From Oscillospiraceae bacterium (GTDB lineage Bacteria; Bacillota; Clostridia; Oscillospirales; UBA929): 47,024 nucleotides of DNA. The stretch spans positions 1 through 47,024 of the forward strand of contig JAIRTA010000091.1 in the NCBI GenBank assembly GCA_031255175.1, in the 5' to 3' direction. The position numbers and the translations under genes are program-made. Below are positions 32,614-41,566 of this stretch, piece after piece (position 1 is the first letter of the stretch; every line of letters begins with the position of its first letter). A model generated the notes under the pieces. It made no database searches. It had not been told where the DNA came from and saw only the letters and a list, made by a program, of their open reading frames with translations.

Positions 32614-32700
32614 GATAACTACCGTAACGAAACGAGCGCCAAAATTGTAGAATGTGAAAAAGGCGCGGTGCGGACACTCAACTCGACAGGAGGGGAGACA

Positions 32701-33363
32701 GTGGATTACTCAAACGACCCAAACAACCAAAACAATCCCTACAACAGCTCCGACCAACCCCCGCAGCCGGGGGCGCCGTATCAGGAGCCGCAGCCGTACC
32801 AGGGGCAGCCCCCCTACCAGGGCCAGCCTCCGTATCCGGAGCAACCCCCTTACCAGGGCCAACCCCCGTATCAGGAGCAGCCTCCCTATCAGGGCCAGCC
32901 TCCCTACCAACCGCAGCAGCCCTACAAGGGCCAGCAACCTTATCTTGGGCCGCAGCCCTACCAAGACGCGCCGCCCTACCAGGGGCAAGCCTACCAGCCG
33001 CCTTACCAGGACCCCGGGGCGGCGTACCCGCCGTCCTATGACGCCGCCCAACCGGGCCACGCGCCGGGGCACGGCATGGGCATCGCTTCACTGGTCCTCG
33101 GCATCATCGCCTTGGTGATCATGTTCATTCCCTTTGTCAACATCGCCTCTCTCCTCATGTCCATCATCGGTCTCATCCTGGCCGTCAGCGCGCGGAAAAA
33201 GAACGCCGCCGCGGGCGTGACCGGCGGTGTGGCCACCGGCGGCCTCGTCTGCTGCATCATCGCGCTGGCGCTTTCCATTCTCGCTGTTGTGACCTGCACG
33301 CTCTGCGCGGCCGCCATTGGGAGTTACGCCGATGGGTTTTCAAATTTTTGGGATTATTATTGA
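32701..33363 (+). CDS. Pro/Gln/Tyr-rich hexapeptide-repeat protein with C-terminal membrane domain
   Basis: 220 aa from the GTG at 32701, 7 nt after AGGAGGGGAG. About a dozen QPPYQG-type repeats, then hydrophobic segments GIASLVLGIIALVIMFIPFV... and GGLVCCIIALALSILAVV (DUF4190-like by recollection). Confidence 0.75.
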   Translation: MDYSNDPNNQNNPYNSSDQPPQPGAPYQEPQPYQGQPPYQGQPPYPEQPPYQGQPPYQEQPPYQGQPPYQPQQPYKGQQPYLGPQPYQDAPPYQGQAYQPPYQDPGAAYPPSYDAAQPGHAPGHGMGIASLVLGIIALVIMFIPFVNIASLLMSIIGLILAVSARKKNAAAGVTGGVATGGLVCCIIALALSILAVVTCTLCAAAIGSYADGFSNFWDYY

Positions 33364-35851: not shown

Positions 35852-36421
35852 ATGCTTTCCTGGGATGCCTTGGAGTCCTCTGTGCGGGGCTGCGCGCGCT
35901 GCGCGCTGGCGGAGACCCGGCAAAACGTCGTCTTTGGCGTGGGCAAACGGGACGCCGGCGTCATGTTCATCGGGGAGGGGCCCGGGCAGCAGGAGGATCT
36001 CACCGGAGAACCTTTTGTGGGCCGGGCGGGCAAGCTGCTTGACGACATGATGACGGTCATCGGGCTCGACCGCACGCGCGTGTACATCGCCAATATCGTC
36101 AAATGCCGCCCGCCGGGCAACCGCGACCCGCTCGGGGTGGAGCAAGACGCCTGCATCGGCTGGCTGCGCAACCAAGTCGCGCTGATCCGCCCCAAGATCA
36201 TCGTCTGCCTGGGCCGCGTCGCGGCGGTGCGCATCATCAAAGAAGATTTTAAGATCACCCGCGAACACGGCGTGATCTTTCCGCGCGGCGACTACCGGCT
36301 CATGGCCACCTTCCACCCCTCGTTCCTGCTGCGCGATCCGCGCCGGCGTCCGGAGGCTTTCGACGACCTGAAAATCCTGGAGGCCGCCATTTTGGAGTGC
36401 TGTCCCGACACGTTGGCCTGA
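35852..36421 (+). CDS. Family-4 uracil-DNA glycosylase
   Basis: 189 aa with the Cys cluster CARCAL, the motif GEGPGQQED, and the C-terminal HPSFLLR. The ATG at 35852 follows GGAGAGAGGGTG. Confidence 0.88.
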
Positions 36422-36561
36422 CCCGGAGCGGATCGGCCCGCGTGTCGTGTGGGGGCGTGTACGTGCGCCTATATATTGCGGCGTGGGGTCCTTTTCTTCA
36501 CCATGACTTTCCTATGCGCATAGGATGGGGTAAATGTCAGAAGGACTTGGGAGGGACCGTC

Positions 36562-37629
36562 ATGTCGGCAGAATTCTTTTTGGGCGCCAACACCCCGGCA
36601 GGGTTTTATTCATTATACGATGGGCTCATCGACACGGACACCGCGCGGGACGTCATCGTGCTCAAAGGGGGGCCCGGCTGCGGGAAGTCCACTTTTATGC
36701 GTCGGGTCGGCGCGTTGGTGGCCGACGCCGGTCACAGCGTCGAATTCATTCTCTGCTCCTCCGACCCGGACTCGCTGGACGGCGTGGTTTTTCCCGGCCT
36801 GAAGGCCGCCGTCGTCGACGGCACCGCGCCCCATGTGGTGGAGCCCGTCTTCCCGCTGGCGGTCGAGCGCTACTGCAACCTGGGCGCGCACTGCGACGTA
36901 GACGCCGTTAAGCTGCACGTGGCGGAGATCCGGCGGCTGACCCGCGCAATCCGCCCCTGTTACGCGCGCGCCACCCGCTGCCTGTCCGCCGCCCGCGCGC
37001 TGGAAGACGACATGTTTGACTGCGTGCTGAACAACGCGGCGCTGGATACGCTGGCGCGCCGCGCGCGAGGGATCATCAGCCGGGAGATCAAACCGGGGCC
37101 CGGTCCGGCGCTGAAAAAACGTTTTCTCAGCGCCATCACGCCGCGCGGTCTGCTCTGCCGTCACGACACGGCGCACGCCCTCTGCCCCCGCCTCTACGAA
37201 TTGAACGACGACTACGGGCTGGCGCATATGATGCTCTCCCCCATCCTGGAAGCGGCTCTCGCCGCCGGGCAAGAGGCTATCGCCTGCTACAGCCCGATGA
37301 ACCCGGACCATCAGCTCGAGCACCTGCTGTTCCCCGGCCTGGGGGTCGGTTTTGTCTCCTCCGGGCATCTGCACGCCTACGACGGAAAACCCTTCCGCCG
37401 CCTGCGCTTAAACGCCTGTCTGGACCCGGAGCTGCTGCGCCGTCATCGCGTCCGTCTGCGCTTTCTGCGCAAGACCGAGCACGCCCTGATGGCCGAGGCG
37501 GTGGGGGCGCTGGCCGACGCCAAACGTCTCCACGACGAGCTGGAGTCCCACTACTGCCCTCACATGGACTTTGCCGCCGTCAAACACTGCGCCGACCAAA
37601 CCGCCGCCTGTCTCTTGCGCCAGGCATGA
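36562..37629 (+). CDS. P-loop NTPase of unknown function
   Basis: 355 aa with Walker A GGPGCGKST near the N-terminus and a possible Walker B AAVVDGT. I cannot name a family. The ATG at 36562 follows GGGAGGGA. Host-like GC. Confidence 0.7.
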   Translation: MSAEFFLGANTPAGFYSLYDGLIDTDTARDVIVLKGGPGCGKSTFMRRVGALVADAGHSVEFILCSSDPDSLDGVVFPGLKAAVVDGTAPHVVEPVFPLAVERYCNLGAHCDVDAVKLHVAEIRRLTRAIRPCYARATRCLSAARALEDDMFDCVLNNAALDTLARRARGIISREIKPGPGPALKKRFLSAITPRGLLCRHDTAHALCPRLYELNDDYGLAHMMLSPILEAALAAGQEAIACYSPMNPDHQLEHLLFPGLGVGFVSSGHLHAYDGKPFRRLRLNACLDPELLRRHRVRLRFLRKTEHALMAEAVGALADAKRLHDELESHYCPHMDFAAVKHCADQTAACLLRQA

Positions 37630-37635
37630 CAAAAA

Positions 37636-37661
37636 CACCCCGCAGTCGCCGCTGCGGGGTG
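37636..37661. terminator. Bidirectional intrinsic terminator at the left island border
   Basis: CACCCCGCAG-TCGCCG-CTGCGGGGTG. T-rich (TTATGTT) after it on the plus strand and TTTTT after it on the minus strand (plus A-run 37631-37635). It serves the converging ATPase gene and the island operon. Confidence 0.85.
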
Positions 37662-37753
37662 TTATGTTAGACGCAGAGGAATTGGAAATTTCAGGTTTTT
37701 CAAAGCCCCCGTTCCGCGGTGGCCGCGAAAAGGATCCGCCGTTCAGCGGGTTC

Positions 37754-38908
37754 TCACTTTTCGCTTCGTTTCAATGTCACTACAAACCAATTTTTCTCTC
37801 TGTCATCGAAAAAATCGATGTCAGGATAGCAGCTCAAAGCACGCAAAATGCCGGAACCGTAACCGCGATAAGGCAACACATGATTTGCAAACGAGGCCAG
37901 CAGAGGGTTCCTTGCATTTGAGTTTCCCGATTTGATGTTCGCAACTGTCAAATTATTCGGCAAATGCCCGGGACTTCTTATTTCTACACGGTTCCGAAAA
38001 ACAAATACCTGCACAGGCGCAGAAAGAAAATAATCGCGATGGATCAGTGCATTGGCAACAAGCTCTTCAATGGCTTCGGGAGGAATCTCCGGTATGCCCA
38101 CACTGTTTATGCCCTGCTCCCCTTGAATATGCCGGAGATTAGAGACAATAAAACTGACCGTCTGCCGAAACACATCGGACAATTTCCCTGTGATATCGCG
38201 GCTGTCATTGTACCCGGTAGCGGCAAGATCATTTGCGTCAAAGGCGCCCGCCTTGACGATGAAAATAGGCAGCCTAAATTGTGGTGACTTTGAAAAGAGC
38301 AATGTGGCGGCGACATTGAGAGAATCGTCTTTCAACAAATTCATATTTTCGAGAATCTTCGGCAATGGCAAGGTTTGCGCGTCCAGCGTCCGACCAAAAC
38401 GTCTTTGGAAAAAATCTCCAAAATATTCCAGATCTAAATCGGCTGTCGTGACGCCCGCAACCGGAAGTTCGTCCGCGTGGACAAGACTTGACGCTTGAAA
38501 CAACCGCTGTATTTCCTCACGAGAGGTCGCTTTCCGTTTATCAGCGCCATTTTTTACCCAGAATATACCATCCTTATCTTGATACGGCTTATTGATGCCG
38601 GAAGAGATGTCAACCACCACAACAAGTCCGCTATCTGTCATGATATTCTCAGTCGAGGGATTGATCGCGGGTTGAATCCATTGACTGGCGACATTGGATA
38701 TCATCTGATTTAAGCGGCGCACATCGTCGCCGGTCAACCCGGAAATTGAACCATCGTCGTCAACACCGATGAATATTTTACCTCCGCCTCCGTTGCTAAA
38801 AGCAACCATTTCAGAGGCCAGCGCTTCTCGACTGTTTATGTTTTTTTTAAATTGCCGGCTGCTGTCCTCACCGCGTTCCAGAAGAGATAAAAGTTCTATG
38901 ATTTCCAT
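37754..38908 (-). CDS. AlbA_2 (Schlafen-like) nucleic-acid-binding domain fused to a GHKL-like (HATPase_c_4-type) C-terminal domain
   Basis: 384 aa. The N-terminus, LLERGEDSSRQFKKNI...EMVAFSNGGGGKIFIGVDDDGSISGL, fits the AlbA_2 pattern (E..EFK, then AF.N..GG.i.iGV.D.G). The C-terminus, EELVANALIHRDYFLSAPVQVFVFRNRVEIRSPGHLPNNLTV...RNPLLASF...RGYGSGILRAL, fits the family often mis-annotated as RecG-like. AT-rich codon usage. RBS AAGGAG about 10 nt upstream. Confidence 0.75.
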   Translation of the reverse strand: MEIIELLSLLERGEDSSRQFKKNINSREALASEMVAFSNGGGGKIFIGVDDDGSISGLTGDDVRRLNQMISNVASQWIQPAINPSTENIMTDSGLVVVVDISSGINKPYQDKDGIFWVKNGADKRKATSREEIQRLFQASSLVHADELPVAGVTTADLDLEYFGDFFQRRFGRTLDAQTLPLPKILENMNLLKDDSLNVAATLLFSKSPQFRLPIFIVKAGAFDANDLAATGYNDSRDITGKLSDVFRQTVSFIVSNLRHIQGEQGINSVGIPEIPPEAIEELVANALIHRDYFLSAPVQVFVFRNRVEIRSPGHLPNNLTVANIKSGNSNARNPLLASFANHVLPYRGYGSGILRALSCYPDIDFFDDREKNWFVVTLKRSEK

Positions 38909-41511
38909 ATTTTATAAATCTCCTTTCTTCTTTCGAACGCCTCTTCGCCGCCCTCCATAATGACAACAATTTGTTCCTGCTGTGTGGGGTTGTCAATGCT
39001 GCCGCTTTGGATAGAAATTTTCGTATCTGAGAGCGAGCAAGCATGTATTTGTTCGGCGTCGCCAAGGACAGGAATATTTGGATTGTGTGTCGCAAAGATG
39101 AATTGTATTTTTGGTTTTAATCTACATATCAATTTAATGACATCTTCATAAATGCTTCGGTTGTCAAGATCATCTTCCGGCTGGTCGATAATGACAACAT
39201 CGTTTTCTTGCTGGCCCAACACAAACAAAATCAACGCCGACGCTCGTTGCCCCAGCGAATGCTCCGCGAGTTTCTTGTCATGGTACATAATGGTATATTT
39301 ATTGGGTGTCTGATAGGTGAGCAAATTTTTCAGATTTTGGTTGAACAGATCGGAAAACTTATCAGGGCTGCTGCCAAACATATTTTTTGCGTTTTCAAAA
39401 TCACAGTAAATATCAGAAAAACTCGAATATTTTTCAACGAGATTTTGTAAAGTAACCTCTCTTGTGTTGCTGCCTCTGAATACATTTTTGAAATAGTCAC
39501 GAAACGCGGCTTTATCTTCCTTAAACTCGACTGAAAATCTCAGTGCCGTGTTTTTTTGAGAAATCTCATCCAATTCAGCCTTGACCATTTGGAATTCTTC
39601 ATGCCAAAGATCATTCAGCTTATGCAATTCTTCATATAGATTGTTTTGGACCGTGTTTTTTTGGTCTTTGTTTTTTGAAAGTGCCGCCAATTTTGTCTCG
39701 GCGGCAATCAATTGTTTTTTGGCCGCCAAAAATTCATCTGTACTGATGTTTTGTCCAATGGCAGTTTTTAGTTCCGTCGCAAGCACTCGCTCGACCTCAG
39801 CGAACTCATCTGCCAATCCGTCCCGCGCCACGAGAAGTTTTTCATGTTCTTTCCTCAATATATCAAGAACCGCTTCCGACCCTGCCAATTCCGCTTTTAT
39901 AATTTCTATGCTTTGAATGCTCCGCATGAAATGTCCGTCGAATTTTTCAAACAATTCAGCGTTGTTTTCAGAAGTATACCCGGAAAAATTGCGCAATTCA
40001 TCCTCGTGTTTTGCGAGCAAATCCCGAATATCGGAGGCAAGTAGTTCAATCAGATGTATCCCTTTTTGGGCCTTGCGAATATCCGCTTCAAAACCGAGAC
40101 GTTTTTGCAATCTTTCTTCGAGTTTGTGTTCTTTATAAAAATTGAGTCGAAATTCCATATTCTGTTTTATTTTTGTCTGTTCTGCGATGAGCTCATCGAC
40201 ATTGCTAATTTTTGACAATCTGTCAATGGCCTCTATGACTCTCGATTTTTGTTCGGCAATTCGACGATGGATCTCATCGCATTTGGTGTTCAATAATTTC
40301 TCAATCAGATCTTTTCCCGAATCTTTTCCGGCAGTGGCAAGTTCTTTTTGACCAAAAAACAGCGGCTTATTTAAAACAGTTTCGCGAATGGAAACGCCTG
40401 GCTGCCATTTTTCCTCGATGAACACTTTGGCGTTTTCTTTCAATATCCGCCTGATCTGATATGGCTGCCCGTGGCGGTCTACGACATCGAGCACAACTCT
40501 GCCCCCGCTGCCAAGTGTGCGCTCCACCAATCTCTCCTTATATCCGCGCTCGCTGTCATTTTCTTCAAGCCGAATGTCCAAAACATAGCGCAAAGCCTCT
40601 AAAATCGAGGATTTTCCACTGCCGCGGATGCCGATAAAGGTGTTGAGTTCCGGTGAAAAACAGATCGTCTGTCCGTCCAGCGTCCCACCCTCAAAACGCA
40701 TTTGTCTGATATGCGAATGCGTATATTGCGGCACACTTTCTGAACACACGCGATGCTCATAATCTGCCAGCGCGAATTTAACGGCTTCAAATGTGAACGC
40801 GCCGAGTTTGAGATAACAGGCTTTCTTTTGCCCAATCTGCTCAATATTTTTGGGGTCGCTGCCCTCCACCTCCGCAGGATACCACCCTCTGAGCCAGTGT
40901 TTGACCTTTTGCCGTTCGTCCTGCGTTCTGACCTGCTGAAAACCCCGTGTCCGCTCTCTAACTGTTTGATATCTTGAGCCACACCACTCCTGGAATCTCC
41001 CGCCGCCGATTTCGTGCCACAGGCCCTTGCTGTCCTCAACATGGGCAAAAATCAGAAAATAATCATATCCCGATTTTTCAAGTTCTTCCACCGTTTGCAA
41101 GATGTTTTTATCACTGCACCCATTCTTATTTTCATACTCTGTCCGCGCCTTGCCGGGGAACATAGCATTCAGAAACGGAGATATCTTATCATTTCCATTC
41201 TCAATCCATGTATCGGCAAAGACAACCAAAACATGGGTGCCATTTGCGCCCTCGCCCACAGACAATTCGACACCGGGGAGTAAAAATATATTTTCCTTCT
41301 TTGCCGTTTTCCGCAACGCGCTGAACTCTTCCAGCTTGAATTTGTTGTGATTCGCAATTACGCCGACACGTATACGCGCCCTCTTTAACGCGTCAACATA
41401 GTCAGTGTTATAATAATTCTCATCACCGGAATACCCAAATTCTCTATCTGCCTTGGTGTGCAGATGGAAATCCGCTCGCATCCACGCGGCTCCGTTTGAA
41501 AACAAATTCAT
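38896..41511 (-). CDS. PHP phosphoesterase fused to a Rad50/SbcC-like coiled-coil ABC ATPase
   Basis: 871 aa. PHP motifs: ADFHLHT (13-19), VIANHN (51-56), GVE (80-82), THV (92-94), FAHVED (155-160), GSD (217-219). Walker A GIRGSGKSS (294-302). A long helical Lys/Glu/Leu-rich insert (about 400-700). Signature-like HSLGQRAS (751-758). Walker B/D-loop VVIIDQPEDDLD (772-783). H-loop FATHN (806-810). RBS GAGGTGA before the ATG at 41511. Confidence 0.8.
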   Translation of the reverse strand: MNLFSNGAAWMRADFHLHTKADREFGYSGDENYYNTDYVDALKRARIRVGVIANHNKFKLEEFSALRKTAKKENIFLLPGVELSVGEGANGTHVLVVFADTWIENGNDKISPFLNAMFPGKARTEYENKNGCSDKNILQTVEELEKSGYDYFLIFAHVEDSKGLWHEIGGGRFQEWCGSRYQTVRERTRGFQQVRTQDERQKVKHWLRGWYPAEVEGSDPKNIEQIGQKKACYLKLGAFTFEAVKFALADYEHRVCSESVPQYTHSHIRQMRFEGGTLDGQTICFSPELNTFIGIRGSGKSSILEALRYVLDIRLEENDSERGYKERLVERTLGSGGRVVLDVVDRHGQPYQIRRILKENAKVFIEEKWQPGVSIRETVLNKPLFFGQKELATAGKDSGKDLIEKLLNTKCDEIHRRIAEQKSRVIEAIDRLSKISNVDELIAEQTKIKQNMEFRLNFYKEHKLEERLQKRLGFEADIRKAQKGIHLIELLASDIRDLLAKHEDELRNFSGYTSENNAELFEKFDGHFMRSIQSIEIIKAELAGSEAVLDILRKEHEKLLVARDGLADEFAEVERVLATELKTAIGQNISTDEFLAAKKQLIAAETKLAALSKNKDQKNTVQNNLYEELHKLNDLWHEEFQMVKAELDEISQKNTALRFSVEFKEDKAAFRDYFKNVFRGSNTREVTLQNLVEKYSSFSDIYCDFENAKNMFGSSPDKFSDLFNQNLKNLLTYQTPNKYTIMYHDKKLAEHSLGQRASALILFVLGQQENDVVIIDQPEDDLDNRSIYEDVIKLICRLKPKIQFIFATHNPNIPVLGDAEQIHACSLSDTKISIQSGSIDNPTQQEQIVVIMEGGEEAFERRKEIYKIWKS

Positions 41512-41566
41512 ACCCTTTCACCTCACTCCAGAAGCGTTTTTGCCACGATGATCCATGATTTATGTA

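Follow-up and report, generated by a model that had tools for sequence, protein, structure and literature searches.

Based on profile searches, a structural model and comparisons of loci, we propose that two overlapping genes on the reverse strand of contig JAIRTA010000091.1 of an Oscillospiraceae bacterium (assembly GCA_031255175.1; the whole 47,024 nucleotides that were analysed are called the window below) form a TrlF-TrlG module. The pair is almost certainly TrlF-TrlG, and a role in defence against phages or mobile elements is likely. The best explanation overall, which we regard as moderately probable, is an apparently horizontally acquired module of the Ppl/TrlF superfamily, in which a nucleoside triphosphate (NTP)-gated, Ppl-like PHP exonuclease acts in defence together with a Schlafen-GHKL partner. 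The original prediction, made from the letters of the window, had described the larger protein as a single-chain Mre11/Rad50-like design. This design is not new: the architecture is already catalogued, both as the named TrlF family (NF045780) and as a trlF-trlG operon published in 2020 (PMC7554251).

The assignment of the larger protein is firm. The open reading frame of 871 amino acids had been read correctly, and every residue named in it lies where it was placed. Its product matches the NCBIfam model TrlF_fam_ATP (NF045780, 'TrlF family AAA-like ATPase') along its full length (residues 6-867 against model positions 1-944) with 540 bits and an E value of 1.8e-161, the curated cutoff being 350 bits, and this E value rules out a chance match or an artefact. 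It shares 48.9% identity with the TrlF annotated on Yersinia ruckeri pYR3, and an exhaustive HMMER search, run with no word index, returns 7,113 cluster representatives of the family at E<=1e-3. A distant relative is Ppl (PplA), said to have been described by Gao et al. in 2020 as a single-gene anti-phage PHP-ATPase of E. coli. Genuine E. coli Ppl, from pNDM-SDCRK18-7, reaches 477 bits with the TrlF model and 1330 with the Ppl equivalog model (NF042955, cutoff 1000 bits); since it passes the broad TrlF model, Ppl is a named subfamily inside the TrlF superfamily, to which the window protein belongs as a non-Ppl member. The homology to Ppl that had been suspected is borne out by this score and by common architecture and motifs, and the profile checks proposed along with it gave a divided answer: the PADLOC Ppl model matches the N-terminal 300 residues of TrlF (1.5e-32), whereas the NCBIfam Ppl model stays below threshold at 151 bits, as does the Spaf_1101 model (153 bits, cutoff 475). 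The window protein was rejected as a Ppl orthologue on this score and because it belongs to a two-gene, not a single-gene, system.

By function and descent, the nearest systems are the TRL (temperature restriction locus) operon, which contains the same pair, minus trlR, and Ppl, which is distant and single-gene. TRL of Photorhabdus laumondii is an operon trlR-trlF-trlG (Front Microbiol 2020, PMC7554251), in which trlF is annotated as histidinol phosphatase and trlG, mis-annotated recG, carries AlbA_2 and HATPase_c_4; the pYR3 TrlF is named there as a TRL homolog. TRL and its homologs, found on Y. ruckeri pYR3 and on Klebsiella and Pseudomonas syringae-group plasmids, share with the window both proteins, the gene order and the overlapping frames, as well as the PHP, P-loop, DQPEDDLD and MEGG motifs of TrlF and the E-x4-Q-x-K signature of TrlG. 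The window differs in having no upstream trlR and in its host, a high-GC spore-forming Firmicute and not a gammaproteobacterium, and its pair is known from genes alone. Ppl has the same architecture and nearly the same length (891 against 871 amino acids), and the two proteins share the DFHxHT, DHN, E...H, AH, SD, GxRGSGKS, Q-loop, DQPEDDLD, H-loop, GDAE and MEGG..AF motifs. However, Ppl is only ~21-25% identical to the window TrlF, reads SPGQK where TrlF has the signature SLGQR, and is a single gene, whereas TrlF is paired with TrlG.

Sequence and model show that TrlF joins a metal-dependent phosphoesterase domain of the PHP type to a nucleotide-binding head of the ABC/SMC type, which is split by an antiparallel coiled coil of ~255 amino acids. 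This one-chain combination of PHP phosphoesterase and SMC/Rad50-type split head had been foreseen, and profiles, an AlphaFold2 (AF2) model and Foldseek all agree with it. In the AF2 model the N-terminal domain is alpha/beta barrel-like, and a Foldseek comparison to the PDB places it with the PHP domain of RNase AM (7ug9; E 4e-6, TM 0.62), BAD_1165 (3e0f) and the PHP domains of Pol III alpha and PolC. The NCBIfam CehA/McbA metallohydrolase model gives a sub-threshold match (E 9.9e-6). As the Pfam PHP model PF02811, another profile check that had been suggested, returns no match even at E<=1, the PHP assignment rests on Foldseek, the CehA/McbA match and the conservation of the ligands.

The candidate PHP metal ligands of the window TrlF are H16, H18, D22, H55, E82, H93, H157 and D219. 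Conservation was assessed in a close alignment of 31 full-length homologs (57-77% identity) and in a distant alignment of 53 cluster representatives from the HMMER search (26-47% identity). Invariant among the 31 are H55, E82, H93 and H157, together with G294/G297/G299/K300/S301/S302, Q388 and S752-L-G-Q755 of the head and with D776, E779, D780, D781, L782, D783 and H809, while H16, H18 and D219 are conserved in at least 90%. Among the 53 representatives, H93, H157, the P-loop, Q388, S752, G754, D776-Q777-P778-E779 and H809 are invariant, and D14, H16, H18, E82 and D219 again reach at least 90%. In TrlFs paired with TrlG, the PHP ligands are strictly conserved. The ligand series had been called intact; its named members are conserved, but the ninth canonical PHP ligand, the His of the terminal D-x-H, is absent, TrlF reading S-D219-P-K-N where Ppl keeps S-D-A-H-H.

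The head matches ABC/SMC-type profiles, as had been anticipated, with Pfam SMC_N, AAA_29 and AAA_23 in its N-terminal half and AAA_21 in its C-terminal half. Besides Walker B and the D-loop, the latter half carries a signature-like S752-LGQR, the H-loop H809, GDAE (817-820) and MEGG..AF (852-859). Between Walker A/Q-loop and signature/Walker B, the AF2 model places helices at residues 399-434, 438-461, 465-507, 518-564, 567-581 and 591-653, which make up two long arms (399-507 and 518-653) between the two head halves. The split topology is thus as predicted, the insert being ~255 and not ~300 residues long, with a spacing of ~360 amino acids from Q-loop to signature. Foldseek finds for head and coiled coil MukB (2e-8) and Smc (5e-7), and JetC, condensin and Rad50 also match (range 2e-8 to 6e-5), in keeping with the expected resemblance to Rad50/SbcC-type heads. 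In the loop at the apex of the coiled coil, EDELRNFSGYTSENN, residues E503, D504, N508 and S514 are invariant among the 31 homologs, and the loop may be a dimerisation or partner-docking element.

The further reading of TrlF as an ATP-gated nuclease of Mre11/Rad50 type in a single chain survives as an analogy only. In common with Rad50/SbcC-Mre11/SbcD and with SMC complexes (MukB, JetC/Wadjet, condensin), TrlF has an ABC head that an antiparallel coiled coil divides in two, and a nuclease tied to that head. In contrast to Rad50/Mre11, the nuclease candidate is a PHP domain in cis instead of a calcineurin-type partner, and TrlF is paired with a Schlafen-GHKL protein. Both hinge and CxxC zinc hook are missing from the short coiled coil, residues 399-653 holding a single Cys, and an invariant Gln takes the place of the catalytic Glu. 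No Rad50, SbcC or Mre11 profile of Pfam or NCBIfam matches the window TrlF at threshold; profiles instead put its head nearer to the AAA_21/AAA_15 defence ATPases, with matches to the PADLOC models of mad3, AriA and PtuA. Sequence searches of the PDB with the single protein and with a family profile yielded marginal P-loop matches to SMC, Rad50 and PtuA, and no Ppl or TrlF structure. A Rad50/SbcC orthologue was rejected for want of hook, catalytic Glu and profile match, and the likeness is at the level of fold and design only.

The Walker B motif of the window TrlF reads I-I-D776-Q777-P-E779. The stretch DQPEDDLD had been read as Walker B plus D-loop, which missed the Gln in the catalytic-Glu place, and the D776A/E779A mutants suggested at the time skip Q777. 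Aligned to the Smc head 5h68, Q777 occupies the position of the catalytic Glu of SMC. The aligned 5h68 chain likewise reads D-Q and is reported to be an engineered E-to-Q construct; wild-type SMC has D-E at this position. The Gln is present in 53/53 representatives and also in solo TrlFs, in TrlFs embedded in BREX and restriction-modification (R-M) operons, and in Ppl. We argue this invariance from the HMMER representatives, and not from the metagenome loci, because DQPEDDL served as one bait of the metagenome locus scan. ABC ATPases with an E-to-Q exchange can still bind ATP and engage their heads, but are severely impaired in hydrolysis. With Gln at the catalytic-Glu place, the TrlF head is likelier to be a nucleotide-binding switch than a Rad50-like motor, and from its motifs it is probably a slow or non-hydrolysing NTP-binding switch.

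The partner, TrlG, belongs to the Schlafen-GHKL ATPases, or Schlatpases. Pfam detects SLFN_AlbA_2 (PF04326, 4.4e-22) and HATPase_c_4 (PF13749, 4.7e-13) at residues 14-127 and 297-360, compared to 14-128 and 298-365 in Photorhabdus TrlG. Foldseek returns DIP2311 (3lmm, E 4e-18), SLFN11/13/14/5, the SAMD9 tRNase and the GHKL domains of PDHK/HK. TrlG is 56-60% identical to the TrlF-adjacent plasmid TrlGs of Y. ruckeri pYR3 (~56-57%), Klebsiella and Pseudomonas. With the known Schlatpases SLFN-pAgo RzAgo and pSlfn-HisKinase (bioRxiv 10.64898/2026.05.29.728809, PMC13056530), it shares both Pfam domains, the fold, the GHKL E-x3-N box and a Schlafen-box-like 'AFSN' motif; in contrast to them, it has no pAgo, Ig-like or winged helix-turn-helix (wHTH) extension and is obligately paired with TrlF. 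It also differs in the Schlafen site, where the canonical prokaryotic nuclease motif E-x4-(E/D)-x-K (PMC13056530) is replaced by E-x4-Q-x-K. In our alignment this degenerate form occurs in 64/64 TrlG-clade proteins, whereas five outgroup Schlatpases are canonical, and stand-alone Schlatpases keep the canonical motif together with a C-terminal wHTH. Of the 64, 13 have N or K instead of D51, the third acidic Schlafen residue. By comparison, E282, N286, H290 and R291 of the GHKL core are invariant, and the residues of RzAgo analogous to E282/N286, E314 and N318, bind Mg-ATP (bioRxiv 10.64898/2026.05.29.728809). In the same protein D32A abolishes tRNase activity (bioRxiv 10.64898/2026.05.29.728809), D32 being, to judge by its position, the (D/E) residue of the Schlafen motif. 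With its acidic triad degenerate and its GHKL box intact, TrlG is likelier to be an ATP-dependent, oligomerising, nucleic-acid-binding sensor or adaptor than a tRNase.

The opposite arrangement is seen in a divergent TrlF-TrlG clade from Citrobacter and Vibrio (L092, 296-4209, and L093, 308-4221; ~22% and ~30% identity). These two pairs have the sole TrlG-like partners with a canonical Schlafen E-x4-E-x-K, and their TrlFs read 'KCALQVNPA' in place of 'DFHLHT', with no HxH within the first 280 residues. The PHP site is lost where the Schlafen motif is kept, and the reverse applies to the window pair, which suggests one catalytic nuclease per pair.

Combining these observations, we propose the following mechanism. 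The DQPE head of TrlF would act as an NTP-binding switch on a dimerising, SMC-like scaffold, and not as a Rad50-like motor. By analogy with Ppl, bound NTPs would hold the PHP 3'-5' exonuclease off, and upon infection NTP depletion and exposed DNA 3' ends would turn TrlF on. TrlG would serve TrlF as an ATP-dependent, oligomerising and probably non-catalytic nucleic-acid-binding sensor or adaptor, and activation would result in nucleic-acid degradation and growth arrest. As far as the available accounts of Ppl extend, NTPs that occupy both its PHP domain and its NTPase domain inhibit this single-stranded DNA 3'-5' exonuclease, which NTP depletion together with 3'-OH ends switches on (PMC12904381; Xu et al., Mol Cell 2026, cited by PMC13434339). 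The Gln head fits this report of NTP inhibition released on depletion, making nucleotide gating plausible, with a sign opposite to that of an ATP-driven model. The division of labour, with TrlF as effector and TrlG as sensor, is put forward tentatively and could well turn out otherwise. Still more speculative, and on balance rather improbable, is a wider picture in which the pair is a two-protein immune machine built of 'naturally mutated' enzymes: an SMC-like head in the E-to-Q form, which is used experimentally to trap ATP-engaged dimers, would sense nucleotide levels and not act as a motor, a Schlafen pseudo-nuclease limited to binding tRNA or single-stranded DNA would report to the PHP exonuclease, and clades would swap the catalytic site between PHP and Schlafen, for a DNA- or RNA-targeting output on one scaffold.

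Several observations weigh against this proposal. The NTP gating is carried over from Ppl through secondary citations. The PHP domain escapes PF02811 and lacks the D-x-H His, and the AF2 model has a mean predicted local distance difference test (pLDDT) score of 75, with values of 34-68 in the head, from whose geometry no conclusions were drawn. The contrast between the window pair and the Citrobacter and Vibrio pairs comes from one divergent lineage, represented by two nearly identical pairs. In the literature searched there is no paper testing TrlF-TrlG, or a PHP-ATPase plus Schlafen system, for phage defence, and no biochemistry of the TrlF-TrlG branch; two 'HisKinase'-type pSlfn systems gave no protection in E. 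coli (PMC13056530), though these may not be TrlG-type or include the partner gene. Finally, all mapped temperature-tolerant mutations of Photorhabdus TRL hit trlG and spare the larger trlF (PMC7554251), which makes TrlF hard to see as the sole toxic effector.

The last point fits an alternative with reversed roles, which casts TrlG as the toxic effector and TrlF as its sensor or restraint, the SMC-like scaffold keeping TrlG inactive. A trigger such as phage, DNA ends, an NTP drop or heat would free or oligomerise TrlG, leading to growth arrest, e.g. through RNA cleavage or ATP-dependent binding, with the PHP domain in an auxiliary role. More than 20 independent tolerant Photorhabdus mutants map to trlG, including stop codons and S16N inside E-x4-Q-x-K, whereas trlF, although 2.3-fold larger, yielded none, and strains deleted for the entire operon survive (PMC7554251); such a pattern would be expected if losing TrlF were selected against or brought no rescue. 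Moreover, the Schlafen domain is the effector in all characterised prokaryotic cases, and TrlG is the better-conserved partner in 48/51 pairs. However, the uniform Gln at the second acidic Schlafen position and the variable D51 are difficult to reconcile with a nuclease, as the equivalent D32A kills the tRNase activity of RzAgo. The strict conservation of the PHP ligands in partnered TrlFs argues for selection on PHP catalysis, and TrlG is dispensable for the function, or at least the persistence, of solo TrlF and Ppl genes. We consider this reversal of roles unlikely, although it survives better than the other alternatives.

The proposed mechanism also depends on the two proteins acting together, and the coupled partner gene that had been noted is confirmed by the 13-nucleotide overlap in the window and by its recurrence. 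Metagenome loci were gathered by an alignment-based scan, a single-protein contig scan having given 5 loci, and pairing was scored at 68 loci that include the whole 3' end of TrlF and no less than 1.15 kb beyond it. TrlG lies directly downstream of TrlF in 53 of them, at offsets of -9 to +24 nucleotides. On plasmids, every close TrlG relative adjoins a TrlF. trlF and trlG are a co-inherited, overlapping unit. It could nevertheless be that TrlF works on its own, as a single-protein defence nuclease in the manner of Ppl, with TrlG independent, merely co-located or regulatory: Ppl acts as a single gene, 15/68 TrlF-family loci are without TrlG, among them solo copies within BREX loci and others carried by E. 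coli plasmids, and TrlG-like Schlatpases occur alone elsewhere. This is quite improbable, as the reading frames overlap in nearly all pairs (-9 to -3 nucleotides), the identities of TrlF and TrlG to the window proteins correlate with r = 0.92 over 51 pairs, and the TrlG clade, with its Q19 and no wHTH tail, is seen only beside TrlF. In addition, at two loci (L047, 2690-3136; L048, 7163-7600) a GNAT acetyltransferase of 145-148 amino acids (Pfam Acetyltransf_1, ~1e-10) takes the place of TrlG and overlaps the TrlF stop codon, suggesting a dedicated partner slot and the GNAT as a possible alternative partner module. Among the solo copies, one on E. coli IncF plasmids (L098, 3192-5813; 44% identical to the window protein) stands beside vapB and GNAT/DUF1778 toxin-antitoxin genes.

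The likely role of TrlF-TrlG in defence is suggested by distribution and context. Full-length relatives at 57-77% identity occur in Clostridia, Bacteroidota, Synergistota, Chlorobium and Methylococcales, and a plasmid search with TrlF matches 995 records, 221 of them full-length and 708 conjugative. Solo TrlFs are found inside BREX loci in the order pglX-TrlF-pglZ-brxL (L001 and L015) or directly after brxL, as pglZ-brxL-TrlF (L068 and L077), while a Vibrio plasmid holds the whole pair in a BREX-1 operon, pglX-TrlF-TrlG-pglZ-brxL, and a Citrobacter IncC plasmid holds it in a type I R-M operon, hsdS-TrlF-TrlG-hsdR. In a human-gut lineage (L006-L009, 6001-9770), TrlF-TrlG lies between HmaA and HmaB of an Hma locus, identified by PADLOC from the SNF2 helicase HmaA (1638 bits) and the DUF1156 adenine methylase HmaB (1181 bits), with a DUF499/HEPN_Swt1 gene next. 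Housekeeping DNA repair, as a single-chain Mre11/Rad50 or SbcCD analogue at chromosomal breaks, or physiological temperature control in place of immunity, would agree with the SMC/Rad50-like fold, with a RefSeq Gene Ontology term 'double-strand break repair' on one homolog (electronic inference only) and with the temperature restriction phenotype of Photorhabdus, but is very improbable given the foreign low-GC island, the patchy cross-phylum spread, the enrichment on conjugative plasmids, the insertion within BREX, R-M and Hma operons, the lack of zinc hook, catalytic Glu and any Rad50/SbcC/Mre11 profile match at threshold, and the dispensability of the operon in Photorhabdus (PMC7554251).

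In the window, trlF and trlG are the only genes of a low-GC island (Table 1), which, judged by its composition, is horizontally acquired: GC is 0.44-0.47 in the two genes compared to 0.64 in the flanks, and GC at third codon positions is 0.47-0.49 compared to 0.83 in the adjacent EamA gene. The flanks hold ordinary genes of a spore-forming Firmicute, namely UDG, SpoVT, EamA, an SLH protein and CheV. The gap between the EamA stop codon and the trlF start measures only 55 nucleotides, which leaves no space for trlR upstream of trlF, and tblastn with the pYR3 TrlR comes back empty for the window and for ~95 other loci, the gene being found in pYR3 only; on both grounds, trlR is not part of the core. 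On the other side, the GC-rich hairpin at 37634-37663 is a strong, likely bidirectional terminator that marks the left edge of the island. A prophage origin was considered and rejected, TrlF being present in just 7/50,697 phage records; PHROGs give no match for TrlF. At the island borders tRNA genes are absent, no flanking repeats, whether direct or inverted, are convincing, and a search for an empty site found none, the sole other contig with an identical EamA protein showing the same junction. The convergent reading frame at 36397-37629 (+) encodes 410 amino acids with a P-loop-like 'GGPGCGKST' and has no Pfam family at E<=1e-4. Another, at 32668-33363 (+; 231 amino acids), combines Pro/Gln/Tyr-rich tandem repeats (QPPYQGQPPYQ...) with subsequent hydrophobic, DUF4190-like C-terminal segments (weak Pfam match, 0.007).

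Table 1 Features of the trlF-trlG locus, in window coordinates
Feature	Position	Strand	Description or basis
trlF	38896..41511	(-)	ATG start, 871-aa TrlF-family protein; ORF listing and NCBIfam match
Ribosome-binding region 5' of trlF ATG	41513..41529	(-)	purine-rich (GGAGTGAGGTGAAAGGG); read from sequence
PHP domain, residues ~8-255	40747..41490	(-)	AF2 pLDDT ~85-94, Foldseek, ligand conservation
ATPase head, N-terminal half, residues ~266-398	40318..40716	(-)	Walker A, Q-loop Q388; Pfam SMC_N, AAA_29, AAA_23 matches at 276-313
Walker A, G294-S302	40606-40632	(-)	invariant GxRGSGKS; GQK at Q-loop likewise invariant
Antiparallel coiled-coil insert, residues 399-653	39553..40317	(-)	long helices in AF2 model, pLDDT ~75-94
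Coiled-coil apex loop, residues ~503-517	39961-40005	(-)	EDELRNFSGYTSENN; conserved across close homologs
ATPase head, C-terminal half, residues 654-871	38899..39552	(-)	Pfam AAA_21 match 619-813, E 3.3e-10
Walker B/D-loop, D776-QPEDDLD-783	39163-39186	(-)	conserved motif
trlG start/trlF stop overlap, 13 nt	38896-38908	(-)	ORF listing
trlG	37754..38908	(-)	384-aa Schlafen/AlbA_2 + GHKL ATPase ('Schlatpase')
TrlG Schlafen/AlbA_2 domain, residues 14-127	38528..38869	(-)	degenerate motif E14-x4-Q19-x-K21, plus D51
TrlG GHKL ATPase core, residues ~275-360	37829..38086	(-)	E282-x3-N286 Mg-ATP box
Low-GC island, ~3.9 kb, holds only trlF and trlG	37664..41566	.	GC and GC3 (third codon position) contrast
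Intrinsic terminator	37634..37663	(-)	12-bp stem, 8 GC pairs, T-tracts both sides; ends trlFG transcript, common to convergent gene

In conclusion, what appeared to be a new single-chain Mre11/Rad50 design is reclassified as a member of a large, named superfamily of at least 7,000 clusters at 50% identity and ~1,000 plasmid records, and for one of its branches, Ppl, a mechanism has now been published. TrlF-TrlG forms an abundant, highly mobile branch that is repeatedly nested in BREX, R-M and Hma operons. The DQPE motif, which is universal across the superfamily, the E-Q-K Schlafen site of TrlG and the reciprocal degeneracy of the two nuclease sites were not found stated in the literature that we searched. 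Together, these features could explain how sensing and killing are split between the two proteins, and why only mutations in trlG relieve the growth arrest of Photorhabdus.

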